From an uncultured Chitinophagaceae bacterium (GTDB taxonomy: Bacteria > Bacteroidota > Ignavibacteria > UBA10030 > UBA8401): 64,000 bases of DNA. Below the pieces are notes generated by a model. It saw only the letters and a program-made list of their open reading frames with translations. It had not been told where the DNA came from and made no database searches. The stretch covers positions 11,949-75,948 of the forward strand of contig CAYHFN010000012.1 of the NCBI GenBank assembly GCA_964355925.1, in the 5' to 3' direction. The translations under genes and the position numbers were made by a program. Below are positions 25,464 to 48,865 of this stretch, piece after piece (position 1 is the first letter of the stretch; each line of letters begins with the position of its first letter).

Positions 25464-25663
25464 AATAATAAATTCCCGCAATGGAATAGAATTTGTATAT
25501 GTATCTTACAAGAAGTCTGCCAATGTTTGCCTCTTTGCAGTATTGTAAGTATGACTGTAATTTGGCCGATTGGTTTAATATATCACTTAGACTTGACAAG
25601 TCAATATGCATAAATCACATAGTTCAATGCATATTTTGCACAAAATATTCTTACCTTAATACT

Positions 25664-26365: not shown

Positions 26366-26402
26366 AAAAACTTTATATCAATGCAATTTAATATCACCAC
26401 CC

Positions 26403-31749: not shown

Positions 31750-31778
31750 TTGACTCTACGGTTTGGCAAGTCTATATT
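31750..31778 (+). promoter_or_regulatory. candidate sigma-70-type promoter of the M20/cyanophycinase operon
   Basis: TTGACT, a 17-nt spacer, then TATATT, about 50 nt upstream of the ATG at 31829, within a 238-bp intergenic region. Confidence 0.35.
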
Positions 31779-31828: not shown

Positions 31829-32944
31829 ATGAAAACCCCTCTTGTTGATCTCTTCCTAAATGCAATAAAGGTAGATTCACAATCGCTAAACGAACAGGCA
31901 ATGGCACGTTATGTTCGCGAGACATTGTACGATTTTCCGGTAACGATAACAGAAGACGGAACCGGTAAAAAAATTAATGGCAATACAGGAAATCTCATCT
32001 GTGTGCCGGAACATTTCAATCAGGGTGAACCTGCAATTGCCTTGTTTGCACACCTCGACACTCCTCGTTCGACAAAAAATGTCTCACCACGTGTTACCGA
32101 CACCATGATCACAAGCGATGGAACGACGATCCTCGGTGTTGACAATAGGGCGGGAACATCAATACTCTTGAATCTTTTGCAAAATAGTTCGAACAATAAA
32201 TTCAATGCAAACTTCATCGTTGTCTTCACCGTTGCCGAAGAGATCGGATTATTCGGTTCAATGCATGTCGATCTCACACCATACAATGTGAAAATGGGAT
32301 TTGTTTTTGATTGTTCGAAAAGACCCGGTACGTTCATCCGTGCAGCAGTAGGATGTTCGTTGTATCAATCTGCATTTATCGGCAAATCCTCCCACGCAGC
32401 AGTCGCTCCTGAGCAAGGAATAAATTCCATACACATTGCAGCCAAGGCTTTAAGTAAGATTCAGATCGGACGTCATTCATCATCGATGACATCGAACATT
32501 GGGATGATTTCCGGAGGAGAAGCAACAAATGTTGTTCCTGACCGATGTCTTGTGGAAGGTGAAGTACGTTCATTCGATCCCGCTGCAATTGATAAGCATC
32601 TGGATGAATTGGAAGCACTATTTAATAATGTTGCAAAAGAAAACGGCGGTACTATTGAGTTTGCATCAAAGATAGATTTTGCGCCGTTCTCGCTTTCTCA
32701 GGATGACCAGGTAATGAAAGTAACATCGAAAGTTCTTCAGCACATCGGTCTGACACCAAATCCCATAGAGTATGTTGGCGGAAGTGATGCAAACATGCTC
32801 AATGCCAAAGGGATCCCGACGGTGAATCTCGGCATCGGTGCTCAGAAACCGCACTCGAATGAAGAATTTATTCTTATTGAGGACTTGAAAAAATCAGCAG
32901 AATTTGCTAACGCTCTGATCAATCACAGTGAGTTTGTTGACTAG
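31829..32944 (+). CDS. M20-family metallopeptidase (PepT/dipeptidase-like), cytoplasmic
   Basis: No signal peptide. Metal and catalytic motifs are AHLDT, DNRAG and AEEIGLFGS, plus a C-terminal GGSDAN. Confidence 0.7.
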   Translation: MKTPLVDLFLNAIKVDSQSLNEQAMARYVRETLYDFPVTITEDGTGKKINGNTGNLICVPEHFNQGEPAIALFAHLDTPRSTKNVSPRVTDTMITSDGTTILGVDNRAGTSILLNLLQNSSNNKFNANFIVVFTVAEEIGLFGSMHVDLTPYNVKMGFVFDCSKRPGTFIRAAVGCSLYQSAFIGKSSHAAVAPEQGINSIHIAAKALSKIQIGRHSSSMTSNIGMISGGEATNVVPDRCLVEGEVRSFDPAAIDKHLDELEALFNNVAKENGGTIEFASKIDFAPFSLSQDDQVMKVTSKVLQHIGLTPNPIEYVGGSDANMLNAKGIPTVNLGIGAQKPHSNEEFILIEDLKKSAEFANALINHSEFVD

Positions 32945-32954
32945 CCAAAAAATT

Positions 32955-33830
32955 ATGAAAAAAGTACATCTGGTCTTTTTACTCTTTTTGCTGCTGACTG
33001 TAACAGCTGAGTCTGCTGCACCGAAAGGGCATCTCTTTATTATTGGTGGAGGTAAGCGGTCGCCTGAGATGATGAAACAGTTCGTTGAGTTAGCAGGGGG
33101 ACCGGAAAAAGCCCGGATTGTTGTGTTCCCTATGGCAAGCGGTATCGCTGATACGGTTGGTATTGAACAAACAGCATCATTTCGCGAACTCGGCGCAAAG
33201 AATTCAGAATTTATGATTCTTCGCCATGATCAGGCTGACTCCATCGAATATGTGAATCGTTTGACCGGTGTGACTGGTATTTTCTTTTCAGGAGGAGATC
33301 AATCCCGTTTAACGAAAGCACTTGCCGGAACGGCAGTGCTTCGAAAAATTAAGGAATTGTATACAGCCGGTGCAGTCATTGGTGGAACAAGTGCAGGTGC
33401 AGCAGTGATGAGTGCGATGATGATCACCGGAAAGGAATTGCTGCATCGTGATACGGTGAATGCATACACAGCGATCAAAGCACATAATATAGAAACTGTC
33501 GAAGGTTTTGGATTTATCAGCAATGCAATCGTCGATCAGCATTTCATTAAACGAAAACGCCACAACCGTTTGCTAAGTCTCGTTTTGGAACATCCGCAAC
33601 TTATTGGAATTGGAATTGACGAAGCAACTGCGATTATTGTAAATCCAGACGAAACGTTCACTGTTATCGGAGACGCAACGGTATTGGTTGTTGACGCTAC
33701 GAGATCGACGCAGGTCCGAACAAATACTAAAGGAGATCTCAGTGCCGGAAATATGTCATTGCACTTGTTGATGGCAGGAGACAGCTTTAATTTGAAGAGC
33801 CGAAAAATAATTCCGCGAAAGGTGAAATGA
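32955..33830 (+). CDS. cyanophycinase (peptidase S51, CphB/CphE-type) with Sec signal peptide
   Basis: The start at MKKVHLVFLLFLLLTVTAESA gives a signal peptide. Motifs are LFIIGGG, GIFFSGGDQSRL, the nucleophile motif GGTSAGAAVMS, and VDQHFIKRKRHNRL (DQHF-x2-R-x-R-x2-R). Confidence 0.8.
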   Translation: MKKVHLVFLLFLLLTVTAESAAPKGHLFIIGGGKRSPEMMKQFVELAGGPEKARIVVFPMASGIADTVGIEQTASFRELGAKNSEFMILRHDQADSIEYVNRLTGVTGIFFSGGDQSRLTKALAGTAVLRKIKELYTAGAVIGGTSAGAAVMSAMMITGKELLHRDTVNAYTAIKAHNIETVEGFGFISNAIVDQHFIKRKRHNRLLSLVLEHPQLIGIGIDEATAIIVNPDETFTVIGDATVLVVDATRSTQVRTNTKGDLSAGNMSLHLLMAGDSFNLKSRKIIPRKVK

Positions 33831-35218
33831 AAACAAACAAATCATTCAATACGCTGGTGATGATCTTTTCTGTTGTTACATTGGCGGCTGTTGCAACGTG
33901 GCTTTTGCCCGGTGGTGAATATGCACGCGAGATCAAGAACGGAAAAACGCTTGTCGTTCCAAATTCGTTCACATACATCTCTAGTCAACCACAAGGGATT
34001 GGAGCACTATTAATTTCCCCAATCAAAGGATTTATTCAGGCGGCAAATATCATCGTTTTTTTATTTGTCATCGGCGGCGCATTCATGATCATTCAAAAGA
34101 CCGGAGCAGTTACCGTTTCCGTACAGCGCATGGCGTTCACGTTTTCACAAAAACCGCATTTACAGAAGTTCTTTATTCCAGTGACGATGACCATTTTTTC
34201 GATCGGCGGAGCTATCTTTGGAAGTTCCGAAGAGACATTGCCGTTCATCGTTATCTTCATCATGCTTTCGATTTCGCTCGGATATGATTCGCTCGTCGGA
34301 ACAGCAATTCCATTCCTTGGAACAGCAGCAGGATTTGCCGGATCTGTTCTGAATCCATTCACCGTTGGCATTGCGCAGAGCATTGCGGAACTTCCGCTCT
34401 ATTCCGGGATCGAGTTCAGGATCATCATCTGGTTGATCAGCACCGTTTCCATGATCGTTTTCGTATCTCGATACGCTTCCAAAGTGAAAGCCGATCCAAC
34501 AAAAAGCTTGGTGTATGATCTCGATCAGGAGCGAAAGCAGTCGCTGCATCTCGTCAACAATACTTTGATAGCTTTTACGCGATCACATGGTTATGTCCTA
34601 CTCACATTCGGAGCCGCCATGATTTTTCTCATTGTCGGCATTCTAAAATTTGGGTGGTACATCAATGAGATCGGAGCGCTCTTTTTAGGACTTGGCATCG
34701 TTTGCGGATTCATGGGGAAATTATCACTGACAGAAATGACAGACGGCTTTCGTGAAGGTGCGCGTGATATGGTCGGCGTTGCGTTGATCATCGGCTGCGC
34801 TCGGGCAATTCTGGTGATTGCCACCGATGGAAAAATTTTGGATCTGATGCTGTATTCACTTGCAAGTATGATCAACGGCCTTCATCCTGTCTTTGCCGCT
34901 CAATCAATGTTCGTGATGCAATGTGTCATCAATTTTTTTGTTCATTCTGCCTCAGGTCAAGCAATGTTGACAATGCCGATCATGGCGCCGCTCGCCGATG
35001 TGGTAGGAATATCCAGACAGATAGCCGTGCTTGCATTTCAATTCGGCGAAGGGTGGATCAATCCGATCTTGCCAACATCGGGTGTGACGATGGGTGTGTT
35101 GGGATTGGCAAATATTTCATGGTCAAAATGGTTCCGCTGGATGCTTCCGGTACAAATTTATTTTTTTGTTGTCGCATTAAGCCTTTTGGCGGTTGCATAC
35201 TTTATCAATTACCAATGA
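33827..35218 (+). CDS. YfcC/DcuC-type (C4-dicarboxylate anaerobic carrier fold) permease
   Basis: 463 aa and polytopic. The N-terminus TWLLPGGEY......VVPNSF.Y....PQGI......PIKGF..AANIIVFLFVIGGAF.IIQKTGA is typical of YfcC. It overlaps the cyanophycinase stop codon by 4 nt. Confidence 0.75.
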   Translation: MKTNKSFNTLVMIFSVVTLAAVATWLLPGGEYAREIKNGKTLVVPNSFTYISSQPQGIGALLISPIKGFIQAANIIVFLFVIGGAFMIIQKTGAVTVSVQRMAFTFSQKPHLQKFFIPVTMTIFSIGGAIFGSSEETLPFIVIFIMLSISLGYDSLVGTAIPFLGTAAGFAGSVLNPFTVGIAQSIAELPLYSGIEFRIIIWLISTVSMIVFVSRYASKVKADPTKSLVYDLDQERKQSLHLVNNTLIAFTRSHGYVLLTFGAAMIFLIVGILKFGWYINEIGALFLGLGIVCGFMGKLSLTEMTDGFREGARDMVGVALIIGCARAILVIATDGKILDLMLYSLASMINGLHPVFAAQSMFVMQCVINFFVHSASGQAMLTMPIMAPLADVVGISRQIAVLAFQFGEGWINPILPTSGVTMGVLGLANISWSKWFRWMLPVQIYFFVVALSLLAVAYFINYQ

Positions 35219-35269
35219 TACCGAAGAGTGATCACTATATTTGAATTTCACCGTAAGGAAAGGGTCTGT

Positions 35270-37816
35270 ATGAGAGAGTCCATTCACTATCTATTTCTTT
35301 CCGTGCTTCTGGTTGTCTCCATCGCTGTTGGCGGCACAACAGGAAAGCTTGCAGGGCGGATTACTGACCGGCAGACAGGCGAAGCGATTGTCGGTGCTAA
35401 TGTGATGATCACATCGGTGAAACCTGCGATCGGCACCGTAACGGATCCGGACGGGTATTATTTTATCATCAACCTACCCCCAGAAAATTATGAAGCCGCC
35501 GTGAGTTTTATCGGATATACACGTGTGACTCAGCGTATCTCGATCAAAGTTGATCAAACGACCGATTTCAATGCTGCCATGGTTTCGGAGACTGTTAAAG
35601 CGGACGAAGTTGTTGTTGTTGGAGAACGCACAGTAATTCAACGTGATCAAAGTTCGACTGTCCAGCGCACAAGTGCGGAAGATCTTTCAGTGATGCCTGT
35701 AAACACCATTGCAGGGGTGCTTCAGCTTCAGACGGGTGTCGTCAACACCGGAGCGTTGCATATTCGCGGTGGACGTGCCGGTGAAGTTGGATATTATCTT
35801 GACGGATATAGGATCGAAGATCCACTATTCAATAATGCTGTTCTGGAGATCAATAACGAAGCGATACAGGAAATGGAACTGTTGTCCGGAACCTTTAACG
35901 CAGAATATGGAAACGCACTTTCAGGAGTGGTGAATGTTGTGACAAAAGAAAATAGCGATCAATACCGCGGACGTCTGCTCTATAAAAGAACGAATGTTGG
36001 GATTGAAGCACCGAGCAATAATTTGAACGAACGTCAAATTGAAGGGACGGTCAGCGGTCCGGTCTGGAGCGATCTTCCTTTAGGATTTTTGATCTCCGGG
36101 AAGAAAGTCGATGCCGATAACTATTATTTTTCGGGATTGACGCAGACAGCGGGTGGTCTTAACAAGACAATAGAATTTTCTAAAAACAAACCTTTTGGAT
36201 TCAATGATCAACTGTCCACAGTTGGGAAACTATCGTGGGTCCCGTTTGGTTCTGCCAAGGTTACGCTTCTTGATAATTATTCAAAACGGAAACGTCGATC
36301 ATACAGTCATTCCATGCGGTTCATTCCAGACAGCACCTACATCACGAATACCGAGAGCAATCTTCTCGGATTGGATTTCCGACATGCACTTTCCAACGAT
36401 CTGTTCTACGATGTTCGCATTTCGTACTATCAATACAGTTATCTGCGCAATGTGGATGGCCGGTCACCCTCTCAATACACACGCGCGTTGTTCACTACAT
36501 TTACGAACACGTTGTTCTATCAGAATATGTCCTCCTCGGTGTATGAAGATCAAAAGACAAAATCTTATTCCTTGAAAGGGGATATGACATGGCAGTTAAA
36601 CAGATTCAACCTTGTTAAAACTGGTATCGAGTTGAAAGCGAACGATCTAGACTACTACTATAATAGTAATCCGGTGAATCCTACCGATCAGATAATCAAC
36701 ATCTATCGGAAGAAACCTTTTGAAGGTGCGGGATATATTCAGGACAAAATTGAATTTGAAACTATCGTTCTGAATCTGGGATTACGATTCGATGCGTTTG
36801 ACGCTGCAACGTCATATCCAAAAGATCCTTTTAATCCCACCAATCCTTCGTTAACGCCGTTGAAAACTGAGATACAATCCATGCTCAGTCCGCGTGTTGG
36901 GATTGCATATCCTGTCCGGGATAATATGGTGTTTCATTTCACGTATGGACAGTTCTTCCAACGACCGGAATATCAAACACTCTATAATAATCTGGAACGA
37001 GCATTTGCAAACCGCGGTACAACATTGTTCGGATCACCAACGCTGGAACCTCAAAAGACTTCGAGCTATGAAATTGGAATCATGACAACGTTGAGTGAGG
37101 GTACCACGACCCAGGTGACATTCTTCAGCAAGAAGATCGAAAACCTGATCGGCGTAGCATGGATCTATCTGCCGCACGCATATGCATTTTATGTCAATGA
37201 AGATTTTGCAACCGTAAAAGGATTTGAATTATCAACAAAGACGAGACTTGAGAATATTTCGTTTGCCGTGAATTATACGTTCTCCGTTGCCAAAGGAAGT
37301 TCGTCATCACAACAAGAACGGTATACGAGTGTCTATAATATTGTCGGCGTTCAATCACTCCGCTTTCTTCCGCTTGATTTTGATCAACGACATACTGCCA
37401 ATGCACAACTTGCACTCGATTTTGGAAAAGACGACGGTCCATTTGGAATATTGCCGGAAGTGTTTGAAAGAACAACATTTAATTTTATTGGACAATATGG
37501 AAGCGGTCTGCCGTACACATTCAATCCTGCACGTTCTATCTATGTGCCGGAACAGAATAATTCCCGTCTCCCCGGAACGTTTACCGTTGATCTATTTGCA
37601 CGAAAGGCGTTTACGTTTGGTCCTGTTCAGTTTGGTGTGTTCTTTGATGTGAGAAATCTGCTTAATCGAAAAAATGTTAACTCCGTCTATTCGGCGACCG
37701 GATCTCCGGTTTTTTCAGGTGACGAATCGGTAAAATCTACTCCCGATTGGCAGCAAGACCCGACAAACTATTCTTCGCCAAGAACAATTTACGTTGGCGT
37801 TGACATTGGATTGTAA
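35270..37816 (+). CDS. TonB-dependent receptor with N-terminal carboxypeptidase-regulatory-like domain
   Basis: I chose the start at MRESIHYLFLSVLLVVSIAVG. GRITD..TGEAIVGANV is CarboxypepD_reg-like. The plug region has VVVVGER...SAEDL and HIRGGRAGEVGYYLDG. A long beta-barrel follows. Confidence 0.8.
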   Translation: MRESIHYLFLSVLLVVSIAVGGTTGKLAGRITDRQTGEAIVGANVMITSVKPAIGTVTDPDGYYFIINLPPENYEAAVSFIGYTRVTQRISIKVDQTTDFNAAMVSETVKADEVVVVGERTVIQRDQSSTVQRTSAEDLSVMPVNTIAGVLQLQTGVVNTGALHIRGGRAGEVGYYLDGYRIEDPLFNNAVLEINNEAIQEMELLSGTFNAEYGNALSGVVNVVTKENSDQYRGRLLYKRTNVGIEAPSNNLNERQIEGTVSGPVWSDLPLGFLISGKKVDADNYYFSGLTQTAGGLNKTIEFSKNKPFGFNDQLSTVGKLSWVPFGSAKVTLLDNYSKRKRRSYSHSMRFIPDSTYITNTESNLLGLDFRHALSNDLFYDVRISYYQYSYLRNVDGRSPSQYTRALFTTFTNTLFYQNMSSSVYEDQKTKSYSLKGDMTWQLNRFNLVKTGIELKANDLDYYYNSNPVNPTDQIINIYRKKPFEGAGYIQDKIEFETIVLNLGLRFDAFDAATSYPKDPFNPTNPSLTPLKTEIQSMLSPRVGIAYPVRDNMVFHFTYGQFFQRPEYQTLYNNLERAFANRGTTLFGSPTLEPQKTSSYEIGIMTTLSEGTTTQVTFFSKKIENLIGVAWIYLPHAYAFYVNEDFATVKGFELSTKTRLENISFAVNYTFSVAKGSSSSQQERYTSVYNIVGVQSLRFLPLDFDQRHTANAQLALDFGKDDGPFGILPEVFERTTFNFIGQYGSGLPYTFNPARSIYVPEQNNSRLPGTFTVDLFARKAFTFGPVQFGVFFDVRNLLNRKNVNSVYSATGSPVFSGDESVKSTPDWQQDPTNYSSPRTIYVGVDIGL

Positions 37817-37857
37817 AATATTTGGAAGAGCCTTCTTTATAAAGGAGAAAGAGATTT

Positions 37858-39819
37858 ATGAAATACAAACATATAATTTTTATCACGATGATGTTTGGTT
37901 GTGCAACGATACTGCCGGCGCAGCTGCGCATCGATGCCCGGGAACAAAGGGTTGGTCAACCATTAGTCCAACCTGCGCTACCGATTGACCGCGCACAGAA
38001 CGTCATCAACATCAATCAGTTAGGTCAAGTAGTGACGAACATGGGGCAGTGGCATCCGTATACCGGAACATTTCCACGAGGCAGATGGCCGATTAATACA
38101 AGCCATGATCAATTATACAAGATGACTTTTGCTGTTGGCATACCGTATAGCGGAATTAACGGTGCCAATGTTGCAAATGCCCGCGGGAATGGAACAAAGG
38201 AATGGGATCCTGTGAGCGGAAATAATAATCCAGCCGTCGGTAAGATCGCTTTAAGCACGGATAAGACCACATGGCCGATCGGAACGAATGGCCAGCCGTA
38301 TTGGCCCGTTCGAACCTTTGATGGAAAAGATAGCATCGTGTCGCAGCAGGATTCCTACTGTGTCTATCGTGATAATACCAATGCACAACCGGTCAAATTG
38401 AACATTCAGGTTACGCAGACAAGTTATGCGTGGAGCACATCTAAAGATCAGGATTATATTGTCTGGAAATTGGAAATATTTAACGATACGACTGCCGCGA
38501 AAGATAGTCTGTATTTTGGATTGTATTATGATTTCGATGGTGGTGGAATCTCGAATGAATTTGATGACGATTACTATGTGTGGGATCCAATCCATCAGTT
38601 CACCTATGTTATTGATGCACCGGGGAACACTGGTTGGGAGATCGGCTCCGTACCATTTGCGTTGGGATTGCATTTTTTAGAAACACCAAAAGTGAATGCG
38701 AGCGGACACCTCGATCCGAATGGAACACGAATGGGAATAACGGACTGGCATTGGTCGGGTGTCTATAGTTCTGCCTGGGGGGATAACGTAGCTGACGATA
38801 CAATTTTCTATGGTTGGATGAGCAGCAGTGAGAGACTTAGAGTAAATACTTCACGGCCGACATTGTTTCATGGCTCTGATCGCCGGATTGATAATTGGAG
38901 GCTTCAAGATACTATTACAGGTAATCAAGCAGGTGGCGATGGTGTTGATGGTGTTGTGGCAAGCGGTCCATATCATATGGAGTCGGGTGAGAAAATGACA
39001 TTCATCTTTGCGCAAATAGCCGGACCCGGTGCGGGTCCCGGAACTCCTGATGTGTCTCGACTTTATAAAACTGTAGAGCGGGTCGATTCTGTGTATGCAC
39101 ATAATTTATCCCTCATCCCCCCTCCAAAACCAACGGTGAAGTTTACAGCATTGGACAGCAAAATAAAGTTGACATGGAGTAACGATAAAGAATTGGCATA
39201 TATAGTTCCGGCGACCGGGAAGTCGGCTGTGTTGGAATATCGTGTTTATAAAACAACCGATCCAAGTCGAAATATATGGGGCTCACCGTATGCTGTCATT
39301 CGAAGAGATACTACAAAAACGACCGTTGATCCGATCGCATACCAATGGCAGGATTCGGCAACGACCACGAACTATTTCTATTATTCCTATGCTGTCACAT
39401 CATTTGATCTTGACAGCATTGAATCCGGGAAAGCATTTCTGCCGGCAGATTCAACCAAATTTGAAAATGTCGTTGAAGCAAGGCCAGTGAATTCGCCAAG
39501 AACATCACTCAATGATATTAAGGTTGTTCCTAATCCCTATGTCATCTCCGCTACGTGGGAACGAAAACGATTGGGAGATCCAAAACTGGGTGAACCGATC
39601 AGGGATCTTGCGTTTACAAATCTTCCGGCACAATGCACGATCAGTATTTATACGCTCGATGGAAATTTGGTAAAGACGATAGAACATTCCAATGGAGTAG
39701 GTACGGAGTTTTGGGACTTACGCACATTTTCAAATCAACTCGTCGCAACCGGAATTTATTTCTATCATGTGAAATCATCGATTGGGGAAAGAGTCAGCAA
39801 ATTTGCAGTTGTTCGATAA
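37858..39819 (+). CDS. secreted protein of unknown function with T9SS-CTD/FlgD-Ig-like C-terminus
   Basis: The signal sequence is MKYKHIIFITMMFGCATILPAQ. I recognised no family for the roughly 550-aa body. The C-terminus is VVPNPYVI...CTISIYTLDGNLVKTIEH...FWDLR......TGIYFYHVKS. Confidence 0.5.
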   Translation: MKYKHIIFITMMFGCATILPAQLRIDAREQRVGQPLVQPALPIDRAQNVININQLGQVVTNMGQWHPYTGTFPRGRWPINTSHDQLYKMTFAVGIPYSGINGANVANARGNGTKEWDPVSGNNNPAVGKIALSTDKTTWPIGTNGQPYWPVRTFDGKDSIVSQQDSYCVYRDNTNAQPVKLNIQVTQTSYAWSTSKDQDYIVWKLEIFNDTTAAKDSLYFGLYYDFDGGGISNEFDDDYYVWDPIHQFTYVIDAPGNTGWEIGSVPFALGLHFLETPKVNASGHLDPNGTRMGITDWHWSGVYSSAWGDNVADDTIFYGWMSSSERLRVNTSRPTLFHGSDRRIDNWRLQDTITGNQAGGDGVDGVVASGPYHMESGEKMTFIFAQIAGPGAGPGTPDVSRLYKTVERVDSVYAHNLSLIPPPKPTVKFTALDSKIKLTWSNDKELAYIVPATGKSAVLEYRVYKTTDPSRNIWGSPYAVIRRDTTKTTVDPIAYQWQDSATTTNYFYYSYAVTSFDLDSIESGKAFLPADSTKFENVVEARPVNSPRTSLNDIKVVPNPYVISATWERKRLGDPKLGEPIRDLAFTNLPAQCTISIYTLDGNLVKTIEHSNGVGTEFWDLRTFSNQLVATGIYFYHVKSSIGERVSKFAVVR

Positions 39820-39838
39820 GAACGAAAAGGGAAATATT

Positions 39839-40855
39839 ATGAAGACACTACTGAAGAGATCTATCACAGTGACGGCGCTGTTTGCATGCATCTGCGCAGT
39901 CTCCTTTGCACAAGGATTCAGCAATGTTGGATTCGCTGGTGCCAATTTCTTGAAAATACCCGCTGAACCGGTTGGTGCAGCGCTTGGAAATTCCATTGTT
40001 GCCTCTGCCACCGGTATCCAGGGATTGTTCTGGAATCCGGGTGCTATTGCAAGCACAGAAGGTACGGAGATTCTCTTTTCCCGGATGAATTGGATCAGTG
40101 ATACTCGTATTTCATATCTCGGGGTTGCACAACGTCTTGGTCCCGGCACAATCGGTCTCAGTATGACAGCACTGACGATGGATGAGATGGAGATCACAAC
40201 AGAAACACAGCCGAACGGGACCGGAACATATTTCAATGCCGGCAGTTATGCAGCCGGACTCTCGTATGGATTGAAGATTATCGACCGGTTTAGTTTTGGT
40301 GCAACAGTAAAATATATCTACGAATATATCTGGGATACACACGGCTCCACGTATGCATTCGATCTAGGTTCTATCTACGTCACGAATTTTTATAATATGA
40401 GGATTGGAATGAGGCTGGCGAATTTCGGTGGTGATGTCACATTCACCGGAGCGCCGATCGATAAAAAACCGGCAACAATCGCACAGTCAGGAATTTCCTA
40501 TTCGTACGATCCTCGTCTTGAACGTGTCTCCAAGGAATATCCGCTGCCGCAGTTCTTCAACGCCGGTATCTCCATCGATCCTCTGACGATGGAAGGACAT
40601 AAATTGACATTAACGGTCGCTGTCACCGATCCGAATGACAACAATACACAAATGCAATTCGGTGGAGAATATGTCTTGCAGGATATGTTCATATTGCGCG
40701 CTGGATACAAATCAGGTTATGATGAACAAGATCTTAGTATGGGGCTCGGCGTTAATGTGAATGTGAGTGGAATTACCACCGGCATCGATTTTGGGTACAG
40801 TACGTTTGGTCAACTAGGCAGCGTGAGCGCGCTCAGTCTGCGGATAGGGTTGTAG
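39839..40855 (+). CDS. PorV/PorQ-family (FadL-like) outer-membrane beta-barrel protein
   Basis: I chose the start at MKTLLKRSITVTALFACICAVSFAQ. GFAGANFLKIPAEPVGAALGNS.VA.A.G..GLFWNPGAIA is the characteristic PorV/PorQ N-terminal segment. The barrel pattern continues to the end of the protein. Confidence 0.65.
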   Translation: MKTLLKRSITVTALFACICAVSFAQGFSNVGFAGANFLKIPAEPVGAALGNSIVASATGIQGLFWNPGAIASTEGTEILFSRMNWISDTRISYLGVAQRLGPGTIGLSMTALTMDEMEITTETQPNGTGTYFNAGSYAAGLSYGLKIIDRFSFGATVKYIYEYIWDTHGSTYAFDLGSIYVTNFYNMRIGMRLANFGGDVTFTGAPIDKKPATIAQSGISYSYDPRLERVSKEYPLPQFFNAGISIDPLTMEGHKLTLTVAVTDPNDNNTQMQFGGEYVLQDMFILRAGYKSGYDEQDLSMGLGVNVNVSGITTGIDFGYSTFGQLGSVSALSLRIGL

Positions 40856-40945
40856 TGTTCATTCAACCGATTTTTGTAAAATAGTTTTTATCAATTAATC
40901 ATTGCAGTATTCATTATTTAATCCATTCACTTAAGGGAGGGTACA

Positions 40946-42844
40946 ATGAAATCTCGTTCACTTTTTTGGTTCACCGTACTATGCAGTATGGTTCTTATAC
41001 TAACTACGGGAGTCTTTGCACAAAATATTACAGGGACAAAGATAATCGGTACAGGAGGTGATTATGCAACACTGGCAGCAGCCATTACTGCTTTGAACAC
41101 CAACCATGCTTCCGGTGCAGTAACGTTTCTGATCAATGGTGATTTGACCGAAACTGGCGGTCTCGAGATCACCGATACCGCACTGGTCGGCGGAAACAGT
41201 CTCGTCATTAAACCGAATACGGGGAAGACACCTGCGGTGACCTTCACGACGGTTGCCACTTCCGGAAACAAAGGAAACGCAGGCTTCACGATTACCGGTA
41301 ATTCTATAAGTATGGGAAGTGTCGGTAATGTTACGATCGACGGTTCGAACACTGCAAACGGAACAACTCAGGATATGACATTTGCGATGGGTGATACAAC
41401 GAATGGACGCTACGTTATCCGATTGAGCGGAAATACCGATAATGTTATGATTAAGAATCTCAAAATTCCGGGAACAGGTGTGAAGTCAGCCCTAGCATCC
41501 GGATCCAGAACGTATGGTATCAACTGTTTGGCAATGGCTTCCGGTGCGGCAGACAATTTGACGATTTCCAATTGTGTGATAGGATCGAGTGCTGCTGCGT
41601 GCTATTATGGTTTGTATAAACCGGACGGTGGCACGGTTCCGGCAGGTAAAGGATTAGTAATATCCAAGAATACGATATTTGCACAACATAAGGGTATGAA
41701 TATCTGGTATGCTGAAGGTACAACCAACATTAATAACAATACAATTTCCATTATCGGTTCTCAGAAAGGATATGTTCAAAATTCTGTAAATGCGATCTAT
41801 ATTGAAGCGTGGTCAGGAATATGTAATATATTCAATAACAACCTTATCACTTTGAAGGCTAGTGCCTTTGGTCAAACGGCCCTTAGACCGCTCTATGGAA
41901 TTCTTCTCTATAATCCCTCTGGCGAAGCACCTGCTGGTCAAACTGCAAACGTGTATAATAATTTTATCAGCGATTTCTATTATATTGGGGATGCGACCAC
42001 GTATCCATCTGAAATCAATGGGATAGCAATTGATGCCTATGGACAAACCGTGAATGTTTTTTTTAATACTATCTATATGAATAAAACAAATATAACATCC
42101 AACCCGGTCTATGGCATTCGCATCTATGATGATTCCCTTCAAACAGCAAATCTGAAAAACAATATTATTGTCAACACTGTAGATTTTGATAGTGCCTATG
42201 CAATTTATCGTGGTACGAATGCAACAAACAGTACGTTTACCTCGGATTATAATGACCTTGTTGTTACCGGTGCAAATGCAAATATTGGGAATCATAACGG
42301 CGTGAAGAGTAAAACACTTGCAAATTGGCAGACAGCATCGGGTAAGGATGCCAACAGTAAAAGTGTCAATCCTGCAAATCCGTTTGGAGGAGCAGGTCAA
42401 TTAAAAAGCGTTACAGATTTGCATTGGGTCTCTGCTGCATCCAATGTTTTTGCCGGTACGCCGATCGTTGGTTATACAACGGATATCGATGGTGATACCC
42501 GAAATGCGACAAAACCATATATGGGTGCTGATGAAGCCGGAACAATGACGATCGTTGGCCAAGGACAATCAGTGTCACCATTTGAATATTCGCTTGGACA
42601 AAATTATCCTAATCCGTTTAATCCATCAACGGAGATTTCTTTCCAACTCAAAACAAATGCATTTACTTCCGTGCGCGTGTATGATGCTCTTGGACGGGAA
42701 GTCTCAACAATGGTGAATGAATATCTGTTGGCGGGTTCACACACTGTGAAGTTCTCTGCTCATAATCATGCAAGCGGAGTGTATCTGTATCGTTTGATCT
42801 CCGGATCGTTCAGCGAAACCAAACGAATGATTCTAGTAAAATAA
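40946..42844 (+). CDS. secreted right-handed beta-helix (pectin-lyase-fold-like) protein with T9SS C-terminal domain
   Basis: It has a signal peptide and repetitive N/G/T/I-rich turns (NVTIDGSN, VMIKNLKI, LTISNCVI, NNNTISI, NIFNNNLI, NVYNNFIS, LKNNIIV). The C-terminus is QNYPNPFNPSTEISF...VYDALGREV...GVYLYRL. Confidence 0.6.
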   Translation: MKSRSLFWFTVLCSMVLILTTGVFAQNITGTKIIGTGGDYATLAAAITALNTNHASGAVTFLINGDLTETGGLEITDTALVGGNSLVIKPNTGKTPAVTFTTVATSGNKGNAGFTITGNSISMGSVGNVTIDGSNTANGTTQDMTFAMGDTTNGRYVIRLSGNTDNVMIKNLKIPGTGVKSALASGSRTYGINCLAMASGAADNLTISNCVIGSSAAACYYGLYKPDGGTVPAGKGLVISKNTIFAQHKGMNIWYAEGTTNINNNTISIIGSQKGYVQNSVNAIYIEAWSGICNIFNNNLITLKASAFGQTALRPLYGILLYNPSGEAPAGQTANVYNNFISDFYYIGDATTYPSEINGIAIDAYGQTVNVFFNTIYMNKTNITSNPVYGIRIYDDSLQTANLKNNIIVNTVDFDSAYAIYRGTNATNSTFTSDYNDLVVTGANANIGNHNGVKSKTLANWQTASGKDANSKSVNPANPFGGAGQLKSVTDLHWVSAASNVFAGTPIVGYTTDIDGDTRNATKPYMGADEAGTMTIVGQGQSVSPFEYSLGQNYPNPFNPSTEISFQLKTNAFTSVRVYDALGREVSTMVNEYLLAGSHTVKFSAHNHASGVYLYRLISGSFSETKRMILVK

Positions 42845-42847
42845 ATT

Positions 42848-43738
42848 GTGGAAAGAACTATGACATCATCGAACATCGGAAAGCAAAGCGATTTTGACCT
42901 GAATAAGTTGATACAGGAAAAGTATCCTTTGCTTTCCGAGCAGCAACGCAAAGTTGCAGATTTTCTTCTTCAAAATTTGCGTGATGTTCCATTCTATTCT
43001 GTTGTTGAACTGGGAAAAAAATGCGGGGCGAGTAAAGCAACTGTTGTTCGCCTCGCGCAGGAACTGGGGCTTTCAGGATTTCAGGAATTACGGTCAAAAC
43101 TGCTGGAAGGAGTTCAATCCGAGATACGAATGAAAGACAAATTCTCATTGATCCATAAATCGGATCATAAAGAAGCTCTTACTATGGTCGCACAGCAGGA
43201 TGTAAAGAACATCAATCAAACGATCAATCACCTCGATAAAAAGGTTTTCCATGAGGTGTGTGATACGATCTTGAAGGCATCTCATGTTTATACCGTTGGA
43301 TTGGGTATTTCCTATTTGATGTCCCAGATCCTTGCATACTCACTCAATCAGGCGGCGGTCCGTTCGACACCGCTTGTGCATGACTACAAAACCTTTGTTG
43401 AGCAGATAAAATTTCTGACAACGAAAGATGTACTGATCGCATTATCGTTTCCGCCGTATTCCAAGGAGACCATCGATGCGGTAAAATATGCATCGCAGAA
43501 AAAGATACCGGTCATTGCCATTACCGATAAATTGACGTCACCAATCACTTTTTATTCGTACAAGGTAATTCCGGTGCGAAGTCAGAATTTGAACTTTACA
43601 AACTCATTTTCAGCGATCTCGGTGATCATCAATGCAATTGCCACCGAGCTTTCAATGTGCAACGAAAAAAAGGCTTTGCAGAATCTCGAAGAGATCAATT
43701 CAAAACTTGAAGAAACAGGGCATTATAATGTTGAATGA
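42848..43738 (+). CDS. MurR/RpiR-family transcriptional regulator (HTH_6 + SIS domain)
   Basis: LSEQQRKVADFLLQN......SV.ELGKKCGASKATVVRLAQELG.SGF.ELR is the HTH region, followed by a SIS domain. The start could instead be the internal Met at 42860. Confidence 0.8.
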   Translation: MERTMTSSNIGKQSDFDLNKLIQEKYPLLSEQQRKVADFLLQNLRDVPFYSVVELGKKCGASKATVVRLAQELGLSGFQELRSKLLEGVQSEIRMKDKFSLIHKSDHKEALTMVAQQDVKNINQTINHLDKKVFHEVCDTILKASHVYTVGLGISYLMSQILAYSLNQAAVRSTPLVHDYKTFVEQIKFLTTKDVLIALSFPPYSKETIDAVKYASQKKIPVIAITDKLTSPITFYSYKVIPVRSQNLNFTNSFSAISVIINAIATELSMCNEKKALQNLEEINSKLEETGHYNVE

Positions 43739-43781
43739 ATTCAGGTTCTTTAACTACACATTGCATTGAGGATAATATTAA

Positions 43782-45806
43782 ATGAAGAACAATGTGCTCT
43801 CTCGATGGATTAAAGTATTGTTTTCAATCATACTTCCGATTGTGAGTGCAGCGCAAGGTTCAGTATTGCTTGTAGGTGGAGGGAGTGAAAATTACAACGA
43901 TTGGTCCGACGTACCGTACCGGTGGATGGTCGACCACGTGCCGAACAAAAAAATTCTTGTGATGCATTACTCCAGCGGGTCGACTTGGTTGGAAGGATAT
44001 TTTAAATCGCTCGGTGCAGTTTCAGCTACAAGTTTTGTCGTTGCTTCTACCTCAGCCGCAAATGACTCCGCTGCTTATAAAACAATTCTTGCAGCAGACG
44101 GAATATTTCTGCGCGGAGGCGATCAATATCAGTATATCAGCAGATGGAAAGGGACGCTGACCGAAAAAGCGATTCGAGAAGTATATCAACGCGGCGGGGT
44201 GATCGGCGGATCGAGTGCTGGTGAAGCGGTACTAAGCCAGGTTATTTTTGATGCTCGTGTTGCTTCCACTGATCCTCGTAACGCACTCCGGAATCCTCTT
44301 TCATCAGGAATCACATTTACAGAAGATTTTCTTGGTTTTGCTTCCGGTATACTTGCAGACACTCATTTTTATGAACGGGGAAGACTGGGTCGATTGCTTG
44401 CAATGATTGCTGTCTATAAATCGCAGACCGGAAAAGAGATCACCGGAGTCGGCGTTGACTATAACACAGCGTTGGCAATTTCGTCTGATGGTGTTGGAGA
44501 AGTGATGGGTTCGGGAACGGTTACGATTCTCCGTTTCTCACCAGCCACGCAATATGTTTTGGAGCCAGGTAAACCATTATCAATGTCAAATGTTCGGCTT
44601 GATCAATTGACGAAAGGATTCAAGTTCAACATATTGACCGGAAATATTTTAGTTCCGGCAACGGCAGTGTCATTCCAACCCAAAAGTGTAAATACATCAG
44701 CACAATCTATAATGCTTGATGGAAGCGGTCGAATCGCAGATTGGTTCTCTGTCTCCGGAAGTTTGAAAAAATTGGTGGCCCTGGTTCCAAATTCAACGGA
44801 CACTATTGGTATTTTCGCTTCGCCCGTTTCGGCATCGATCGCCTCGAGCATTGACTCATGTTTGAAACACTGGAATGTACCATCTCGATTTTTGTGGATC
44901 GATGAAGCTCGAAAGAATGATCCCGCGCTGTCGGTTAATATTGAAGGTTGCGCAGCATTTGTCTTAGCCGGTAATAATGGCGACAGTATTTCGCGATTGC
45001 TCAATGCTTCAACAACGGCAGGAATTTCTCTTTTCTCAAAATTTTCAAACGGCAAACCCGCGCTCTTCCTCGGCAATGATGGGATTGTAGCGTCGGAAAA
45101 CGGAGTGGGACAGATTGAAAAGAATATTTACGGCGCATATTATGGATACATGACACTCATTCAAGGAATTGGAACTCTCCAGGGAATTTCTGTCATCCCC
45201 CGATTATATGAAAATTCCGATTACATCGACAATAGGGCGAGCGGACTTTTTTGGGGATTGGGAAAATCACACAATACTTTTGGTATTTTACTTGATGCCG
45301 GTTCATATGTTTCTGTGACAAATAAAAACATGCAGGTGTTTGGTCCAACACCGGCAATGATCATCGATGCCCGAGCAGTGCGTATCGTGGATTTTCCAAC
45401 ATGGAAAGATCCGGGCAAAGCAAATCCGCGACAGAATGTGGCGCTGATCGGAGCGATGATCCATGTGCTGCGCGAGACGGAGGTGTTTGATCTAAGCTAT
45501 CTATCGGAAGTGAGGATCGATAAAATGAAAAACGATATTCCGAATGAATTCTCGTTATCACAAAATTATCCTAATCCATTTAACCCGACGACGAATTTTA
45601 TGTTTTCACTGCCTCAGCGCGGCGTTGTCACGGTAAGAATATTCGATATTCTTGGAAAAGAGATATTGACTCTGCTGAACCAGGAAAAAGCAGCGGGAAA
45701 GTATCGAATGACATTTGATGGGTCGCAGTTTGCGTCCGGAGTCTATCTTTATCGATTGCAGACCGGAAGTACCATCAACACAAAGAGGATGGTGTTGTTG
45801 AAATGA
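43782..45806 (+). CDS. T9SS-sorted cyanophycinase-like S51 peptidase with a second, degenerate S51-like domain
   Basis: It has a signal peptide. Domain 1 has LLVGGGS, GIFLRGGDQYQY, GGSSAGEAVLS and DTHFYERGRLGRL (R-x-R-x2-R kept). Domain 2 has the parallel segments IMLDGSG, AFVLAGNNGDSI, LFLGNDGIVAS (no Ser-Ala-Gly nucleophile) and IPRLYENSDYIDNR. The C-terminus is QNYPNPFNPTTNFMF...IFDILGKEI...GVYLYRL. Confidence 0.7.
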   Translation: MKNNVLSRWIKVLFSIILPIVSAAQGSVLLVGGGSENYNDWSDVPYRWMVDHVPNKKILVMHYSSGSTWLEGYFKSLGAVSATSFVVASTSAANDSAAYKTILAADGIFLRGGDQYQYISRWKGTLTEKAIREVYQRGGVIGGSSAGEAVLSQVIFDARVASTDPRNALRNPLSSGITFTEDFLGFASGILADTHFYERGRLGRLLAMIAVYKSQTGKEITGVGVDYNTALAISSDGVGEVMGSGTVTILRFSPATQYVLEPGKPLSMSNVRLDQLTKGFKFNILTGNILVPATAVSFQPKSVNTSAQSIMLDGSGRIADWFSVSGSLKKLVALVPNSTDTIGIFASPVSASIASSIDSCLKHWNVPSRFLWIDEARKNDPALSVNIEGCAAFVLAGNNGDSISRLLNASTTAGISLFSKFSNGKPALFLGNDGIVASENGVGQIEKNIYGAYYGYMTLIQGIGTLQGISVIPRLYENSDYIDNRASGLFWGLGKSHNTFGILLDAGSYVSVTNKNMQVFGPTPAMIIDARAVRIVDFPTWKDPGKANPRQNVALIGAMIHVLRETEVFDLSYLSEVRIDKMKNDIPNEFSLSQNYPNPFNPTTNFMFSLPQRGVVTVRIFDILGKEILTLLNQEKAAGKYRMTFDGSQFASGVYLYRLQTGSTINTKRMVLLK

Positions 45807-45841: not shown

Positions 45842-45875
45842 AATGATCCAAAGAAACTTTTTGGATCATTTTTTT
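45842..45875 (+). terminator. rho-independent terminator closing the S51/T9SS gene set
   Basis: aatgatccaaa-gaaactt-tttggatcatt forms an 11-bp stem, followed by a T-run. Confidence 0.6.
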
Positions 45876-45953: not shown

Positions 45954-46871
45954 GTGAAATCCCATGATTTTTTGACTATTCGTGATCTCAATAAAGAAGA
46001 AATGCACGAAACATTTACAATCGCACGAGACATGAAAACTGATCGCAGCAAATACGCAGAAGCATTGAAAGGTAAAACGCTTGCTCTCATTTTCGAAAAG
46101 CCGTCGTTAAGAACCCGCACCTCGTTCGATGTTGGAATCCAGCAATTAGGTGGATTCTCACTCTACTTATCTCCTGCCGAAATCAGTCTTGGCAAACGGG
46201 AATCCATCCACGATGTAGCAAAAAATCTGGAACGGATGGTACAGGGTATCATGATCAGGACGTTCGCACATCAGATCGTGATCGATATGGCAAAATATGC
46301 CTCCATTCCTGTCATCAATGGATTGACCGATTATTCACATCCATGTCAAGCAATGGCAGATTTTCTAACGATCCTTGAAAAGAAAAAGAAACTTGAAGGA
46401 TTAAAACTTTCGTATGTAGGTGATGGCAATAATGTTGCTCACTCATTGATGTTTGCCGGTGCTCGACTCGGTGTGAATGTAACGATTGTCTGTCCTCCGG
46501 ATTTCAAACCAAATGCCACAGCATTGCAACAATCGGTGGAAGATGCAAAAGCAACCGGTGCAGTGATCGAAGTGGTGCATGATCCGGCTATAGGAGTGAA
46601 AAATGCTGATGTGGTGTACACCGATACGTGGGCATCGATGGGACAGGAAAGTGAAGCTGAAGCACGGAAAAAAATATTTGCACCGTATCAGGTGAACAAG
46701 AAACTGATGTCCTATGCAAAAACCGATGTACTCTTTATGCATTGTCTGCCTGCGCATCGTAATGAAGAAGTGACCGATGAAGTCATTGATTCACCTCAGT
46801 CTGTTGTCTTCGATGAAGCGGAAAACCGACTTCATGTGCAAAAAGCAATCATGTATCAGTTAATGAAATAA
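45954..46871 (+). CDS. argF: ornithine carbamoyltransferase
   Basis: GTG start after aaggaa. Motifs are FEKPSLRTRTSF, HPCQ, DGNNV, DTWASMG and HCLPA. Whether it acts catabolically (arcB) or anabolically (argF) cannot be told from the sequence. Confidence 0.9.
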   Translation: MKSHDFLTIRDLNKEEMHETFTIARDMKTDRSKYAEALKGKTLALIFEKPSLRTRTSFDVGIQQLGGFSLYLSPAEISLGKRESIHDVAKNLERMVQGIMIRTFAHQIVIDMAKYASIPVINGLTDYSHPCQAMADFLTILEKKKKLEGLKLSYVGDGNNVAHSLMFAGARLGVNVTIVCPPDFKPNATALQQSVEDAKATGAVIEVVHDPAIGVKNADVVYTDTWASMGQESEAEARKKIFAPYQVNKKLMSYAKTDVLFMHCLPAHRNEEVTDEVIDSPQSVVFDEAENRLHVQKAIMYQLMK

Positions 46872-46876
46872 TCAGT

Positions 46877-47818
46877 ATGAAAAAAACAGCGTTGATTGCA
46901 ATTGGCGGAAATTCACTGATCCGTGCCGGAGAGCGCGGCACAATTGATGAGCAGTTGAAAAATGCCCATGCGACGGCACGATGCATTGTTCAGATGGTGG
47001 CTCAAGGATGGCGCATTGTCATTACGCATGGCAACGGGCCACAGGTAGGTGCTGCGTTGATGAGATCTGAGCGAGCTGCCAGCGATGTGTACACACATCC
47101 GCTTGATGTCTGTGTCGCAACCACACAAAGTGAGATCGGGTACATCATTCAACGGGCGATGGAATTTGAATTGCGGGAGATTGGGTTGTTGACGCCGGTG
47201 ATGACTGTGTTGACTCAAGTAAAAGTTGATGAGAACGACCCTGCATTTACGAATCCAACAAAACCGATCGGTCCGTTCTATTCAAAGTCGGATGCGGAAG
47301 AAAAACAACGAACGCTCGGCTGGCACATTATTGAAGACGCTGCGCGTGGATATCGGCGCGTTGTTCCATCTCCCGAACCGGTCGAAGTGTTCGAACAGGA
47401 GATTATACGGAAGATCCTCGATCTGAATATGATCGTTATCGCTGTCGGCGGCGGCGGAATACCCGTTATCGAGCGCGAAAAATATCTTGTGATCGGCAGT
47501 GAAGCGGTGATCGATAAGGATCGTGCATCTGCTCTTCTTGCAACCGGATTGGGTGTTGACCTTTTTATTATCAGTACCGATGCTGAGAAAGTGTGTATCG
47601 ATTTTAAGAAACCAACACAATATGGAATAGATACCGCTACCGCAGATGAAATGCAGAAGCTCTATGATCAGGGACAGTTTCCAGCAGGAAGTATGGGACC
47701 CAAGGTTCAATCTGCTATCCGGTATCTGCGAAACGGCGGGAAAAAAGTTATCATTACATCGTACGAATTTTTAATGGATGCGTTGGACGGTAAAGCAGGA
47801 ACGCGTATTGTTCTATAA
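46877..47818 (+). CDS. arcC: carbamate kinase
   Basis: 313 aa. Motifs are ALIAIGGNSL, ITHGNGPQVG, GGGGIPV, AVIDKD and P.GSMGPKV. Confidence 0.9.
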   Translation: MKKTALIAIGGNSLIRAGERGTIDEQLKNAHATARCIVQMVAQGWRIVITHGNGPQVGAALMRSERAASDVYTHPLDVCVATTQSEIGYIIQRAMEFELREIGLLTPVMTVLTQVKVDENDPAFTNPTKPIGPFYSKSDAEEKQRTLGWHIIEDAARGYRRVVPSPEPVEVFEQEIIRKILDLNMIVIAVGGGGIPVIEREKYLVIGSEAVIDKDRASALLATGLGVDLFIISTDAEKVCIDFKKPTQYGIDTATADEMQKLYDQGQFPAGSMGPKVQSAIRYLRNGGKKVIITSYEFLMDALDGKAGTRIVL

Positions 47819-47839
47819 TATTATTGGAGTGAGCAAACC

Positions 47840-48757: not shown

Positions 48758-48865
48758 TGCGATGGCTCTCCTTGTATATTATTTGAACATGATGTAATAA
48801 CTGGATTCCTGTTGTATCGAATCATAGAGAACATTACACTATTCATTTTATAAAAGGATTGAACC

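Follow-up and report, generated by a model that had tools for sequence, protein, structure and literature searches.

The window analysed here is a 64,000-nucleotide stretch of contig CAYHFN010000012.1 from an uncultured bacterium of the class Ignavibacteria (assembly GCA_964355925.1), and the subject of this work is a group of three co-directional open reading frames (ORFs) at positions 35270-40855. The positions match those given in an earlier note on the same DNA, which was made from the letters and their translations alone and described a trio of TonB-dependent receptor (TBDR), 653-aa secreted protein and PorV/PorQ-like barrel without SusD; the ORFs, Pfam and NCBIfam agree with that description. 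Gaps within the trio measure 41 nt (between the TBDR and the 653-aa protein) and 19 nt (between the 653-aa protein and the barrel). The same gene order recurs elsewhere in the genome; it is referred to below as a cassette, and the product of its central gene as the middle protein.

The three proteins of the cassette

The trio consists of the following features:

35270..37816, + strand: TBDR of the cassette subfamily, 848 aa, with CarboxypepD_reg-like N-terminal domain, TonB-box-like DEVVVVG, plug and barrel (Pfam and translation)
37858..39819, + strand: 653-aa middle protein with signal peptide, beta-supersandwich, FN3 region and a special tail of type IX secretion system (T9SS) type (AlphaFold2 (AF2), Foldseek and translation)
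39502..39816, + strand: tail of the 653-aa protein (aa 549-653), assigned to a T9SS C-terminal domain subclass (tail hidden Markov models, HMMs)
39839..40855, + strand: private barrel of the PorV/PorQ family, 338 aa, with signal peptide; proposed anchor of the 653-aa protein (NF033709 and tree)

The receptor gene starts with an ATG at 35270, inside an ORF that opens at 35228, and the stretch 5' of this ATG reads AAGGAAAGGG. Pfam places CarbopepD_reg_2 at residues 28-116 (67.7 bits), in keeping with the carboxypeptidase-regulatory-like N-terminal domain recognised previously, followed by two domains above their cut-offs, Plug (PF07715, residues 124-220, 34.7 bits) and the 22-strand-type TonB_dep_Rec_b-barrel (PF00593, residues 336-797, 113.5 bits). 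With both plug and barrel present, and a DEVVVVG TonB-box-like stretch preceding the plug, the protein is a TonB-dependent receptor. It falls outside SusC/RagA, scoring 70.1 bits on TIGR04056 (cut-off 368) over its N-terminal 130 residues only, and no SusC above this cut-off was found in the whole genome. The 15 closest paralogues of the receptor (183-471 bits) are all linked to cassettes, including a rearranged one (C74) and a barrel-less variant (C20); the remaining TBDRs of the genome reach at most 77 bits against it. SusD domains (PF07980, PF14322) gave zero matches in the locus and in the genome (99.7% complete), with the Bacteroides thetaiotaomicron control being detected.

In agreement with the earlier note, the gene after the receptor is thus not SusD-like. 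Its start is preceded at 8 nt by AGGAG, and the signal peptide of the 653-aa product ends in Ala-Gln, a signal-peptidase I site, so that the protein is not a lipoprotein. A Pfam search with this protein returned no match. Homologues numbered 115; by sequence, neither the protein nor a 101-sequence profile of its family, the latter at E ≤ 1, detected any PDB chain. The AF2 model (predicted local distance difference test score, pLDDT, 87.2; predicted TM-score, pTM, 0.84) is laid out as a beta-supersandwich (~ aa 45-415), an FN3 region (~ aa 425-545) and the tail (aa 549-653). Foldseek gave domain-level matches only, to the N-terminal sandwich of GH94 (TM 0.22-0.28), to FN3 and to the PorZ tail (5m11), and yielded no whole-protein structural relative of the model (TM-scores 0.28 or less). 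The assessment that this protein belongs to no recognisable family therefore stands. Middle proteins in the genome range from 639 to 1265 aa, which puts the 653-aa one among the shortest; most of its paralogues align collinearly with it across the N-terminal sandwich and the FN3 region, and above all in the tail.

The barrel is encoded in an ORF opening at 39782. It belongs to the PorV/PorQ family, with 181.3 bits on NF033709 (cut-off 90) over model positions 3-324 of 326 (181.5 bits in a six-frame search of the genome), and remains below the cut-offs of both equivalog models: 57.9 and 44.5 bits for PorV (NF033710, cut-off 250), 75 and 70.5 bits for PorQ (NF033711, cut-off 220). Judged by these scores, it is closer to PorQ than to PorV. 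Its sole sequence match in the PDB was PorV (6h3i_F, E = 2.5e-5). Nineteen PorV-family genes above cut-off are present in the genome. The true PorV is located at C30:6423-7526 (267.8 bits), where it immediately follows PorU (972 bits), the true PorQ at C26:13763-14710 (227.9 bits) and the true PorZ on C23 (377 bits). In a maximum-likelihood tree of 23 paralogues, the window barrel groups with 13 other cassette barrels (support 89/86), while PorV is split off from it (100/99) and PorQ groups with non-cassette barrels (92/88). The barrel is therefore, as the earlier note had supposed, a paralogue, separate from the housekeeping PorV and PorQ. Its description as locus-specific has to be amended, the barrel being rather one of 15 cassette barrels in the genome.

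The middle-protein tail and the recurrence of the cassette

The C-terminus of the 653-aa protein had been described as T9SS/FlgD-Ig-like. A T9SS-type tail is indeed present, right at the threshold of type A. The type-A model TIGR04183 gave 23.4 bits (cut-off 23) and no match was obtained with PF18962; the only other NCBIfam match was to the tail of the PorZ model (23.3 bits on residues 587-653). The tail motif consists of VVPNPY, a 15-22-aa insert and then F-x-NLP-x-x-C-T-I-x-I-Y-T, and it is this insert together with the second motif that distinguishes it from ordinary tails. Residues 560-580 of the insert have a pLDDT below 50 in the AF2 model. An intermolecular disulfide through the conserved tail residue Cys593 was considered and rejected, as the translated sequence of the mature barrel contains no Cys.

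Two tail HMMs were compared, one built from 80 ordinary cargo tails of the genome, which detects 152 proteins, and a second built from middle-protein tails. The ordinary-tail HMM gave 0 bits on 12 out of 15 middle proteins, the 653-aa one included, and the middle-protein HMM 92-130 bits on all 15 (122 bits on the 653-aa tail). Few other proteins of the genome favour the latter model, and among them are PorU (30.9 vs 23.0 bits) and PorZ (25.6 vs 0 bits). By these profile comparisons the 653-aa tail is a divergent T9SS C-terminal subclass rather than a typical type-A member. The barrel had also been suggested to serve neighbouring T9SS cargo; with a middle-protein tail so different from ordinary cargo tails, it probably serves the middle protein only and not the ordinary cargo nearby. 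None of the 152 ordinary cargo proteins comes with a private barrel.

Uncleaved tails are a property of two T9SS substrates, PorU and PorZ, whose tails stay bound to PorV and PorQ, respectively, and the authors of a review speculate that cognate PorV-like barrels shield such tails from cleavage (PMC10202324). It is on these two points that the model of anchoring considered below is based.

A phmmer search with the three proteins identified 14 strict trios in the order TBDR, middle protein, barrel, in addition to the rearranged cassette and the barrel-less variant mentioned above. Other cassettes adjoin T9SS-tailed proteins of the GH13, GH9 + GH2 + CBM9, GHL10 and PL6-like types, and one adjoins an M16 peptidase in which no tail was detected. 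Synteny was then followed in a sample of 73 loci from other species, belonging to Ignavibacteria, KSB1/Zhuqueibacter and Calditrichia. The TBDR was directly upstream of the middle protein in 63 of the 67 testable loci, and the barrel directly downstream of it in 65 of 69. The remaining eight cases keep the trio order as well, and fall outside the strict distance rule because the longest-ORF starts overlap. Three orthologous loci with unrelated flanks have the same neighbours. With the same order repeated in the genome and in ~ 70 loci of Ignavibacteria, KSB1 and Calditrichia, the arrangement of the trio is not due to chance, and it is syntenic in other genomes. Distance matrices of the three cassette proteins correlate with one another (r = 0.48-0.73 across 15 cassettes; Mantel p = 0.0002 for the barrel-tail pair), as is to be expected if the block duplicates as a unit.

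The tail has a still wider distribution. Of 401 genomes sampled across the phylum, 209 contain at least one protein detected by its profile at E ≤ 1e-12 (97 of the 99 that belong to the same class as the window, 112 of the other 302); scoring covered up to 12 candidates per genome, a ceiling that some genomes reach. A search of 1.84 billion cluster representatives returned 5750 proteins at E ≤ 1e-10, and among the single-stretch matches listed, the tail match ends at the C-terminus or no more than one residue from it. The tail class is thus present in roughly half of the genomes sampled and in thousands of metagenomic protein clusters.

Several variant arrangements were seen in the genome. The barrel-less variant (C20:19584-28607) comprises a middle protein, four small ORFs (211-270 aa) and a TBDR. 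At C29:18972-21777, the gene of a 623-aa protein with a weak middle-type tail immediately precedes that of a barrel, and no TBDR of the cassette type was detected; at C1:103084-106515 a 520-aa tailed protein is followed by two tandem barrels. The pairing of a tailed protein with a private barrel may thus reach beyond the TBDR cassettes.

As a module, the cassette is real, conserved and widely distributed, and the open-access literature searched yielded no published description of it. Specifically, no account of a receptor, tailed protein and PorV-like barrel module turned up in this literature, which leaves most subscription journals outside, nor did any publication there, given its partial coverage, bring together PorV, TonB-dependent and Ignavibacteria.

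The surrounding operon

Apart from the trio, the following features were recognised on the same strand:

31829..32944, + strand: cytoplasmic M20 peptidase (PepT-like), first gene of the unit; candidate beta-Asp-Arg dipeptidase (Pfam)
32928..33830, + strand: periplasmic cyanophycinase (S51) with signal peptide; likely start ATG 32955 (TIGR02069)
33827..35218, + strand: inner-membrane transporter of the YfcC/DcuC family; candidate dipeptide importer (PF03606)
40946..42844, + strand: 632-aa T9SS cargo with ordinary type-A tail (PF18962 and TIGR04183 at residues 554-630)
42848..43738, + strand: RpiR/MurR-type regulator, HTH_6 + SIS (Pfam)
43782..45806, + strand: secreted S51 peptidase, cyanophycinase-like, with ordinary T9SS type-A tail (TIGR02069; PF18962 at residues 596-671)
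45842..45870, + strand: hairpin resembling a terminator, with a 13-bp stem and then a T run, where the transcription unit likely ends (consensus scan)

The operon appears to run from 31829 to the hairpin at 45842-45870. A promoter-like site at 31750-31778 was picked up by a scan with the sigma-70 consensus, which may not suit this phylum and returned 45 sites against 36 expected. Loci whose flanks are unrelated retain the order M20, S51, DcuC, RpiR, trio and tailed S51, and the overall arrangement of the locus is conserved across classes. Ordinary type-A tails at 26310-28202, 40946-42844 and 43782-45806 bear out the observation that three or four T9SS cargo genes are found nearby.

The M20 gene, which matches M20_dimer, Peptidase_M20 and M42 and has no signal peptide in translation, scores 251 bits on the PepT-like model TIGR01883 (below the cut-off of 274), and is present in 59 of the 73 related loci, heading them. 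The periplasmic S51 passes the cyanophycinase equivalog TIGR02069 (191.9 bits vs cut-off 126.6) with its GTSAG, DQHF and GIDE motifs all intact; its signal peptide reads MKKVHLVFLLFLLLTVTAES in translation, and S51 occurs in 63 of the 73 loci. The transporter, with 332.8 bits on PF03606 (DcuC) and 376.6 bits on NF008611 (YfcC, below its cut-off of 500), is found in 59 of them, and the RpiR regulator in 64, mostly directly upstream of the TBDR. The 632-aa cargo is probably a right-handed beta-helix according to its AF2 model (pLDDT 71.4), for which fold matches to polygalacturonase, alginate lyase and tailspike were weak (E ≥ 3e-3); full-length orthologues of this protein are confined to the closest Ignavibacteria loci.

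The secreted S51 aligns to cyanophycinase 7uqv (E = 1.5e-21), and its best solved relatives are cyanophycinases. All 37 secreted T9SS-tailed S51 enzymes compared (that of the window and its orthologues in loci L027-L108) have retained the Ser nucleophile and the His. At the third position of the triad, every periplasmic S51 paralogue has Glu and the secreted ones have D, A, V, Y or E, a variability that suggests a catalytic dyad or a relocated acid. In two genomes from other classes of the phylum, a protein homologous to this secreted S51 over its full length (E = 1e-63 and 3e-51) is encoded next to a SusC-like receptor and a SusD (PF07980, PF14322). Both of these loci (L112 and L113) also encode an IadA-like amidohydrolase (Amidohydro_1; L112:8729-9859). 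SusC/SusD thus occupy in homologous loci the slot that is held here by the cassette.

This cyanophycinase context had gone unseen in the earlier note and likely gives the substrate of the locus. The conserved M20 peptidase is, in turn, a candidate for the beta-Asp-Arg dipeptidase, which has been described as still undiscovered in Bacteroidota (PMC10206079).

A second, paralogous cyanophycinase locus is present at C32:19416-31110 and contains M20, S51, DcuC, a 379-aa T9SS cargo, RpiR, TBDR, a 933-aa middle protein and a barrel. Directly after the terminator of the operon in the window, genes at 45954-50062 encode ornithine carbamoyltransferase, carbamate kinase, aspartate carbamoyltransferase and ornithine aminotransferase; they fit the use of Arg and Asp, and their link to the operon stays loose. 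Downstream of the ornithine aminotransferase gene, at 50125-51459, lies a 444-aa protein with a marginal CobW/P-loop match (20.9 bits) and no NCBIfam family. Upstream of the locus, on the opposite strand, are a DUF1800 protein (23745-25481, - strand; 302.8 bits) and, next to it, a 525-aa protein with an ordinary T9SS tail (22157-23734, - strand).

Proposed mechanism, alternatives and known systems

There is little doubt, in our view, that the trio represents a conserved uptake module. Taken together, the data favour a more specific reading, to which we assign a probability of roughly 0.55: the trio would form the outer-membrane core of a cyanophycin-type utilisation operon (31829-45806) and carry out capture and import in a manner analogous to SusCD, with a surface partner that is exported by the T9SS and held by the barrel. 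The strongest argument is that one set of catabolic enzymes is accompanied by SusC/SusD in some loci and by the cassette in others, which suggests that the cassette does the job of SusC/SusD. Of the options raised in the earlier note, it is accordingly the tethering module with a SusD-like capture partner that the evidence favours, given that a homologous secreted S51 adjoins SusC/SusD in other classes.

Secretion, retention of the tail, a physical complex, ligand binding and the identity of the substrate are all predicted here from sequence and gene context. In the proposed scheme, the T9SS-secreted S51 would attack extracellular cyanophycin, or a closely related polymer with an Asp backbone, and the 653-aa protein would bind the polymer or its oligomers at the cell surface. 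The oligomers would be imported by the TBDR and cut by the periplasmic cyanophycinase to beta-Asp-Arg, which the YfcC-type transporter would bring into the cell for splitting by the M20 peptidase. As for assembly, the special tail would take the 653-aa protein across the outer membrane through the T9SS and, remaining uncleaved, dock on the protein's own PorQ-like barrel, like the PorZ tail on PorQ and the PorU tail on PorV. The 653-aa protein would thereby be kept beside the receptor in the role that the lipoprotein SusD plays for SusC. We consider the odds of the anchoring and lid steps to be about even.

A number of observations weigh against this scheme. The tail is the most conserved part among the paralogous middle proteins, so that it might be read by the shared T9SS machinery and not by each private barrel. 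The same tail occurs without an adjacent barrel at C20:19584-23147 and C27:2056-6294, and several PorV-family barrels have no adjacent partner. When the TBDR was controlled for, no excess covariation of tail and barrel was seen among the 15 cassettes (partial r = 0.06, p = 0.35); the covariation test is neutral, and specific co-evolution of tail and barrel is unsupported by it. The 653-aa protein has no recognisable ligand site, and the residues invariant across its family also occur in paralogues encoded in glycan loci. The products of known cyanophycinases are dipeptides of about 290 Da, a size for which no TBDR should be required; the import of oligomers is an assumption. The secreted S51 scores 111.8 bits on TIGR02069, below the cut-off of 126.6, with the triad Glu replaced by Tyr. 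Finally, no IadA, IaaA or CphZ was found in the locus, and no arginine deiminase (arcA, TIGR01078), which would close the route from Arg to citrulline or ornithine, in the genome.

The last of these points bear on the possibility, which we regard as rather unlikely, that the substrate of the locus is not cyanophycin but, for instance, polyaspartate, other Asp-rich or isoAsp peptides, or proteins generally, with the S51 enzymes acting as PepE-like aspartyl peptidases. The S51 family does include dipeptidase E, and the score and altered triad of the secreted enzyme would agree with such a role, as would the missing IadA, IaaA, CphZ and arcA. Against this, the periplasmic S51 reaches 192 bits on the cyanophycinase equivalog with three intact motifs, cyanophycinases are the best solved relatives of the secreted enzyme, genes for ornithine carbamoyltransferase, carbamate kinase and ornithine aminotransferase follow directly downstream, and a plain S51 paired with a Por-tailed one defines the published cyanophycin locus as it is presented in the papers that cite it. 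The barrel, for its part, could be a dedicated export shuttle or chaperone, in effect a private PorV, in which case the middle protein would be processed as ordinary cargo (its tail cut, and the protein anchored to A-type lipopolysaccharide (A-LPS) or released) and the barrel would be outside any standing receptor complex. PorV is a known shuttle for tail-bearing cargo (PMC10202324) and the sole PDB sequence match of the barrel, and the lack of additional tail-barrel covariation is compatible with this role. We nevertheless hold it to be unlikely: the true PorV of the genome presumably serves 152 ordinary cargo proteins, which makes a shuttle for each protein seem needless; the tail resembles the retained tails of PorU and PorZ; the barrel scores higher on the PorQ than on the PorV model; and the strict one-to-one gene ratio with tight linkage to the TBDR fits a stoichiometric structural partner better.

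Somewhat less credence still is given to the idea that the 653-aa protein acts as an enzyme at the cell surface, for instance by opening the polymer through endo-hydrolysis, and not as a passive binding lid. Endo activity would be useful, since known cyanophycinases work from the chain end; glycoside phosphorylases and hydrolases have domains similar to the N-terminal sandwich; and the 101 aligned sequences of cyanophycin-type middle proteins show no variation at S162, D172 and H338. As a family feature, however, this candidate Ser-Asp-His triad was rejected, because S162 is Ala in most paralogues, and D172 and H338 are kept in most aligning paralogues whatever the type of locus, which points to a family scaffold rather than a triad. 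The likeness to GH94 concerns its non-catalytic N-terminal sandwich at the low TM-scores given above, and no catalytic family was matched. The other option raised in the earlier note, namely that the barrel is a lateral-entry channel of the FadL/TodX type for a small or hydrophobic compound, working in parallel to the receptor and unconnected with the middle protein, is highly improbable. The PorV family is related to FadL, and a weak, partial match to Toluene_X (PF03349) was obtained (16.7 bits, E = 0.0028), but this falls below the cut-off of 29.7, whereas the PorV/PorQ model gives 181 bits. Moreover, the polyamide inferred as substrate is charged and hydrophilic, this type of barrel also occurs in the cassettes of starch, cellulose and other glycan loci, and it is always directly downstream of a special-tailed protein.

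Returning to capture and import by a barrel-held partner, we tentatively suggest, at slightly less than even odds, that TBDR, PorZ-like-tailed protein and PorQ-like barrel make up a general and previously undescribed nutrient-capture machine that takes the place of SusC/SusD in Ignavibacteria, KSB1, Calditrichia and other non-Bacteroidia. The T9SS would deliver the partner, an uncleaved tail docked non-covalently on the private barrel would replace the lipid anchor, and the three would form a standing tripartite complex. If so, a large part of the Bacteroidota-related radiation builds uptake machines unlike the SusC/SusD textbook model, and the T9SS has a new role in the assembly of import complexes, besides exporting enzymes and adhesins. 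The recognition of loci similar to polysaccharide utilisation loci (PULs) in uncultured Ignavibacteria, KSB1 and Calditrichia would also change: PUL predictors key on SusC/SusD pairs and therefore miss all 15 loci of this genome. The cyanophycin copy in the window would offer a tractable model and is well suited to testing, with a chemically defined polymer as its likely substrate and a small, well-modelled partner that is among the shortest of its kind (653 aa); the homologous loci with SusC/SusD provide a natural swap control.

Among the closest known systems is SusC/SusD (RagA/RagB). In both systems a TBDR with a CarboxypepD_reg-like domain is encoded directly upstream of a partner that is, or would be, surface-exposed, the genes are part of substrate-specific operons with secreted enzymes and a regulator, many paralogous copies occur per genome, and the same slot is filled in homologous cyanophycinase loci of other classes. 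In contrast to SusC, the cassette receptor is not recognised by the SusC/RagA model, on which it reaches 70 of the required 368 bits. The SusD fold is helical and TPR-like, whereas the 653-aa partner is all-beta in its model, has an Ala-Gln site in place of a lipoprotein signal, bears a T9SS-type tail and lacks any SusD domain. The cassette also has an obligatory third gene, the PorQ-like barrel, which SusC/SusD do not.

With PorZ-PorQ and PorU-PorV of the Porphyromonas gingivalis attachment complex, the cassette shares the pairing of a T9SS-tailed protein with a 'FadL-like' barrel of the PorV/PorQ family, retention of the tail being proposed here by analogy; PorU and PorZ of this genome favour the middle-tail HMM, and porU adjoins porV. 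Unlike these pairs, that of the cassette is multiplied 15-fold and coupled to TBDRs in catabolic operons, its barrel is below both equivalog cut-offs and its tail carries the 15-22-aa insert after VVPNPY. The FadL/TodX channels for hydrophobic compounds are a distantly related barrel family, as the sub-threshold Toluene_X match indicates, and differ from the window barrel, which has a hydrophilic gene context and likely substrate. The principle of one cargo with one cognate barrel is also seen in the PorP/SprF-family barrels for gliding adhesins of Flavobacterium (PMC10202324). These, however, use type B tails and have no link to TonB-dependent import, and the cassette barrel is of the PorV/PorQ family.

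Another close system is the PUL-like locus for cyanophycin utilisation in Salinivirga cyanobacteriivorans (Ben Hania 2017, as cited in PMC10206079 and PMC6243061). As far as these citing papers describe it, that locus likewise combines a plain S51 cyanophycinase and a second one bearing a Por/T9SS tail with a transporter, a dipeptidase and TonB-dependent import at the outer membrane, and its layout is matched by the SusCD and Amidohydro_1 genes of the two loci from other classes (L112 and L113). Measured against the same descriptions, the operon in the window has both types of cyanophycinase and is nonetheless not a locus of the Salinivirga type: TBDR, 653-aa protein and PorQ-like barrel stand in for SusC/SusD, and a PepT-like M20 peptidase takes the place of IadA.

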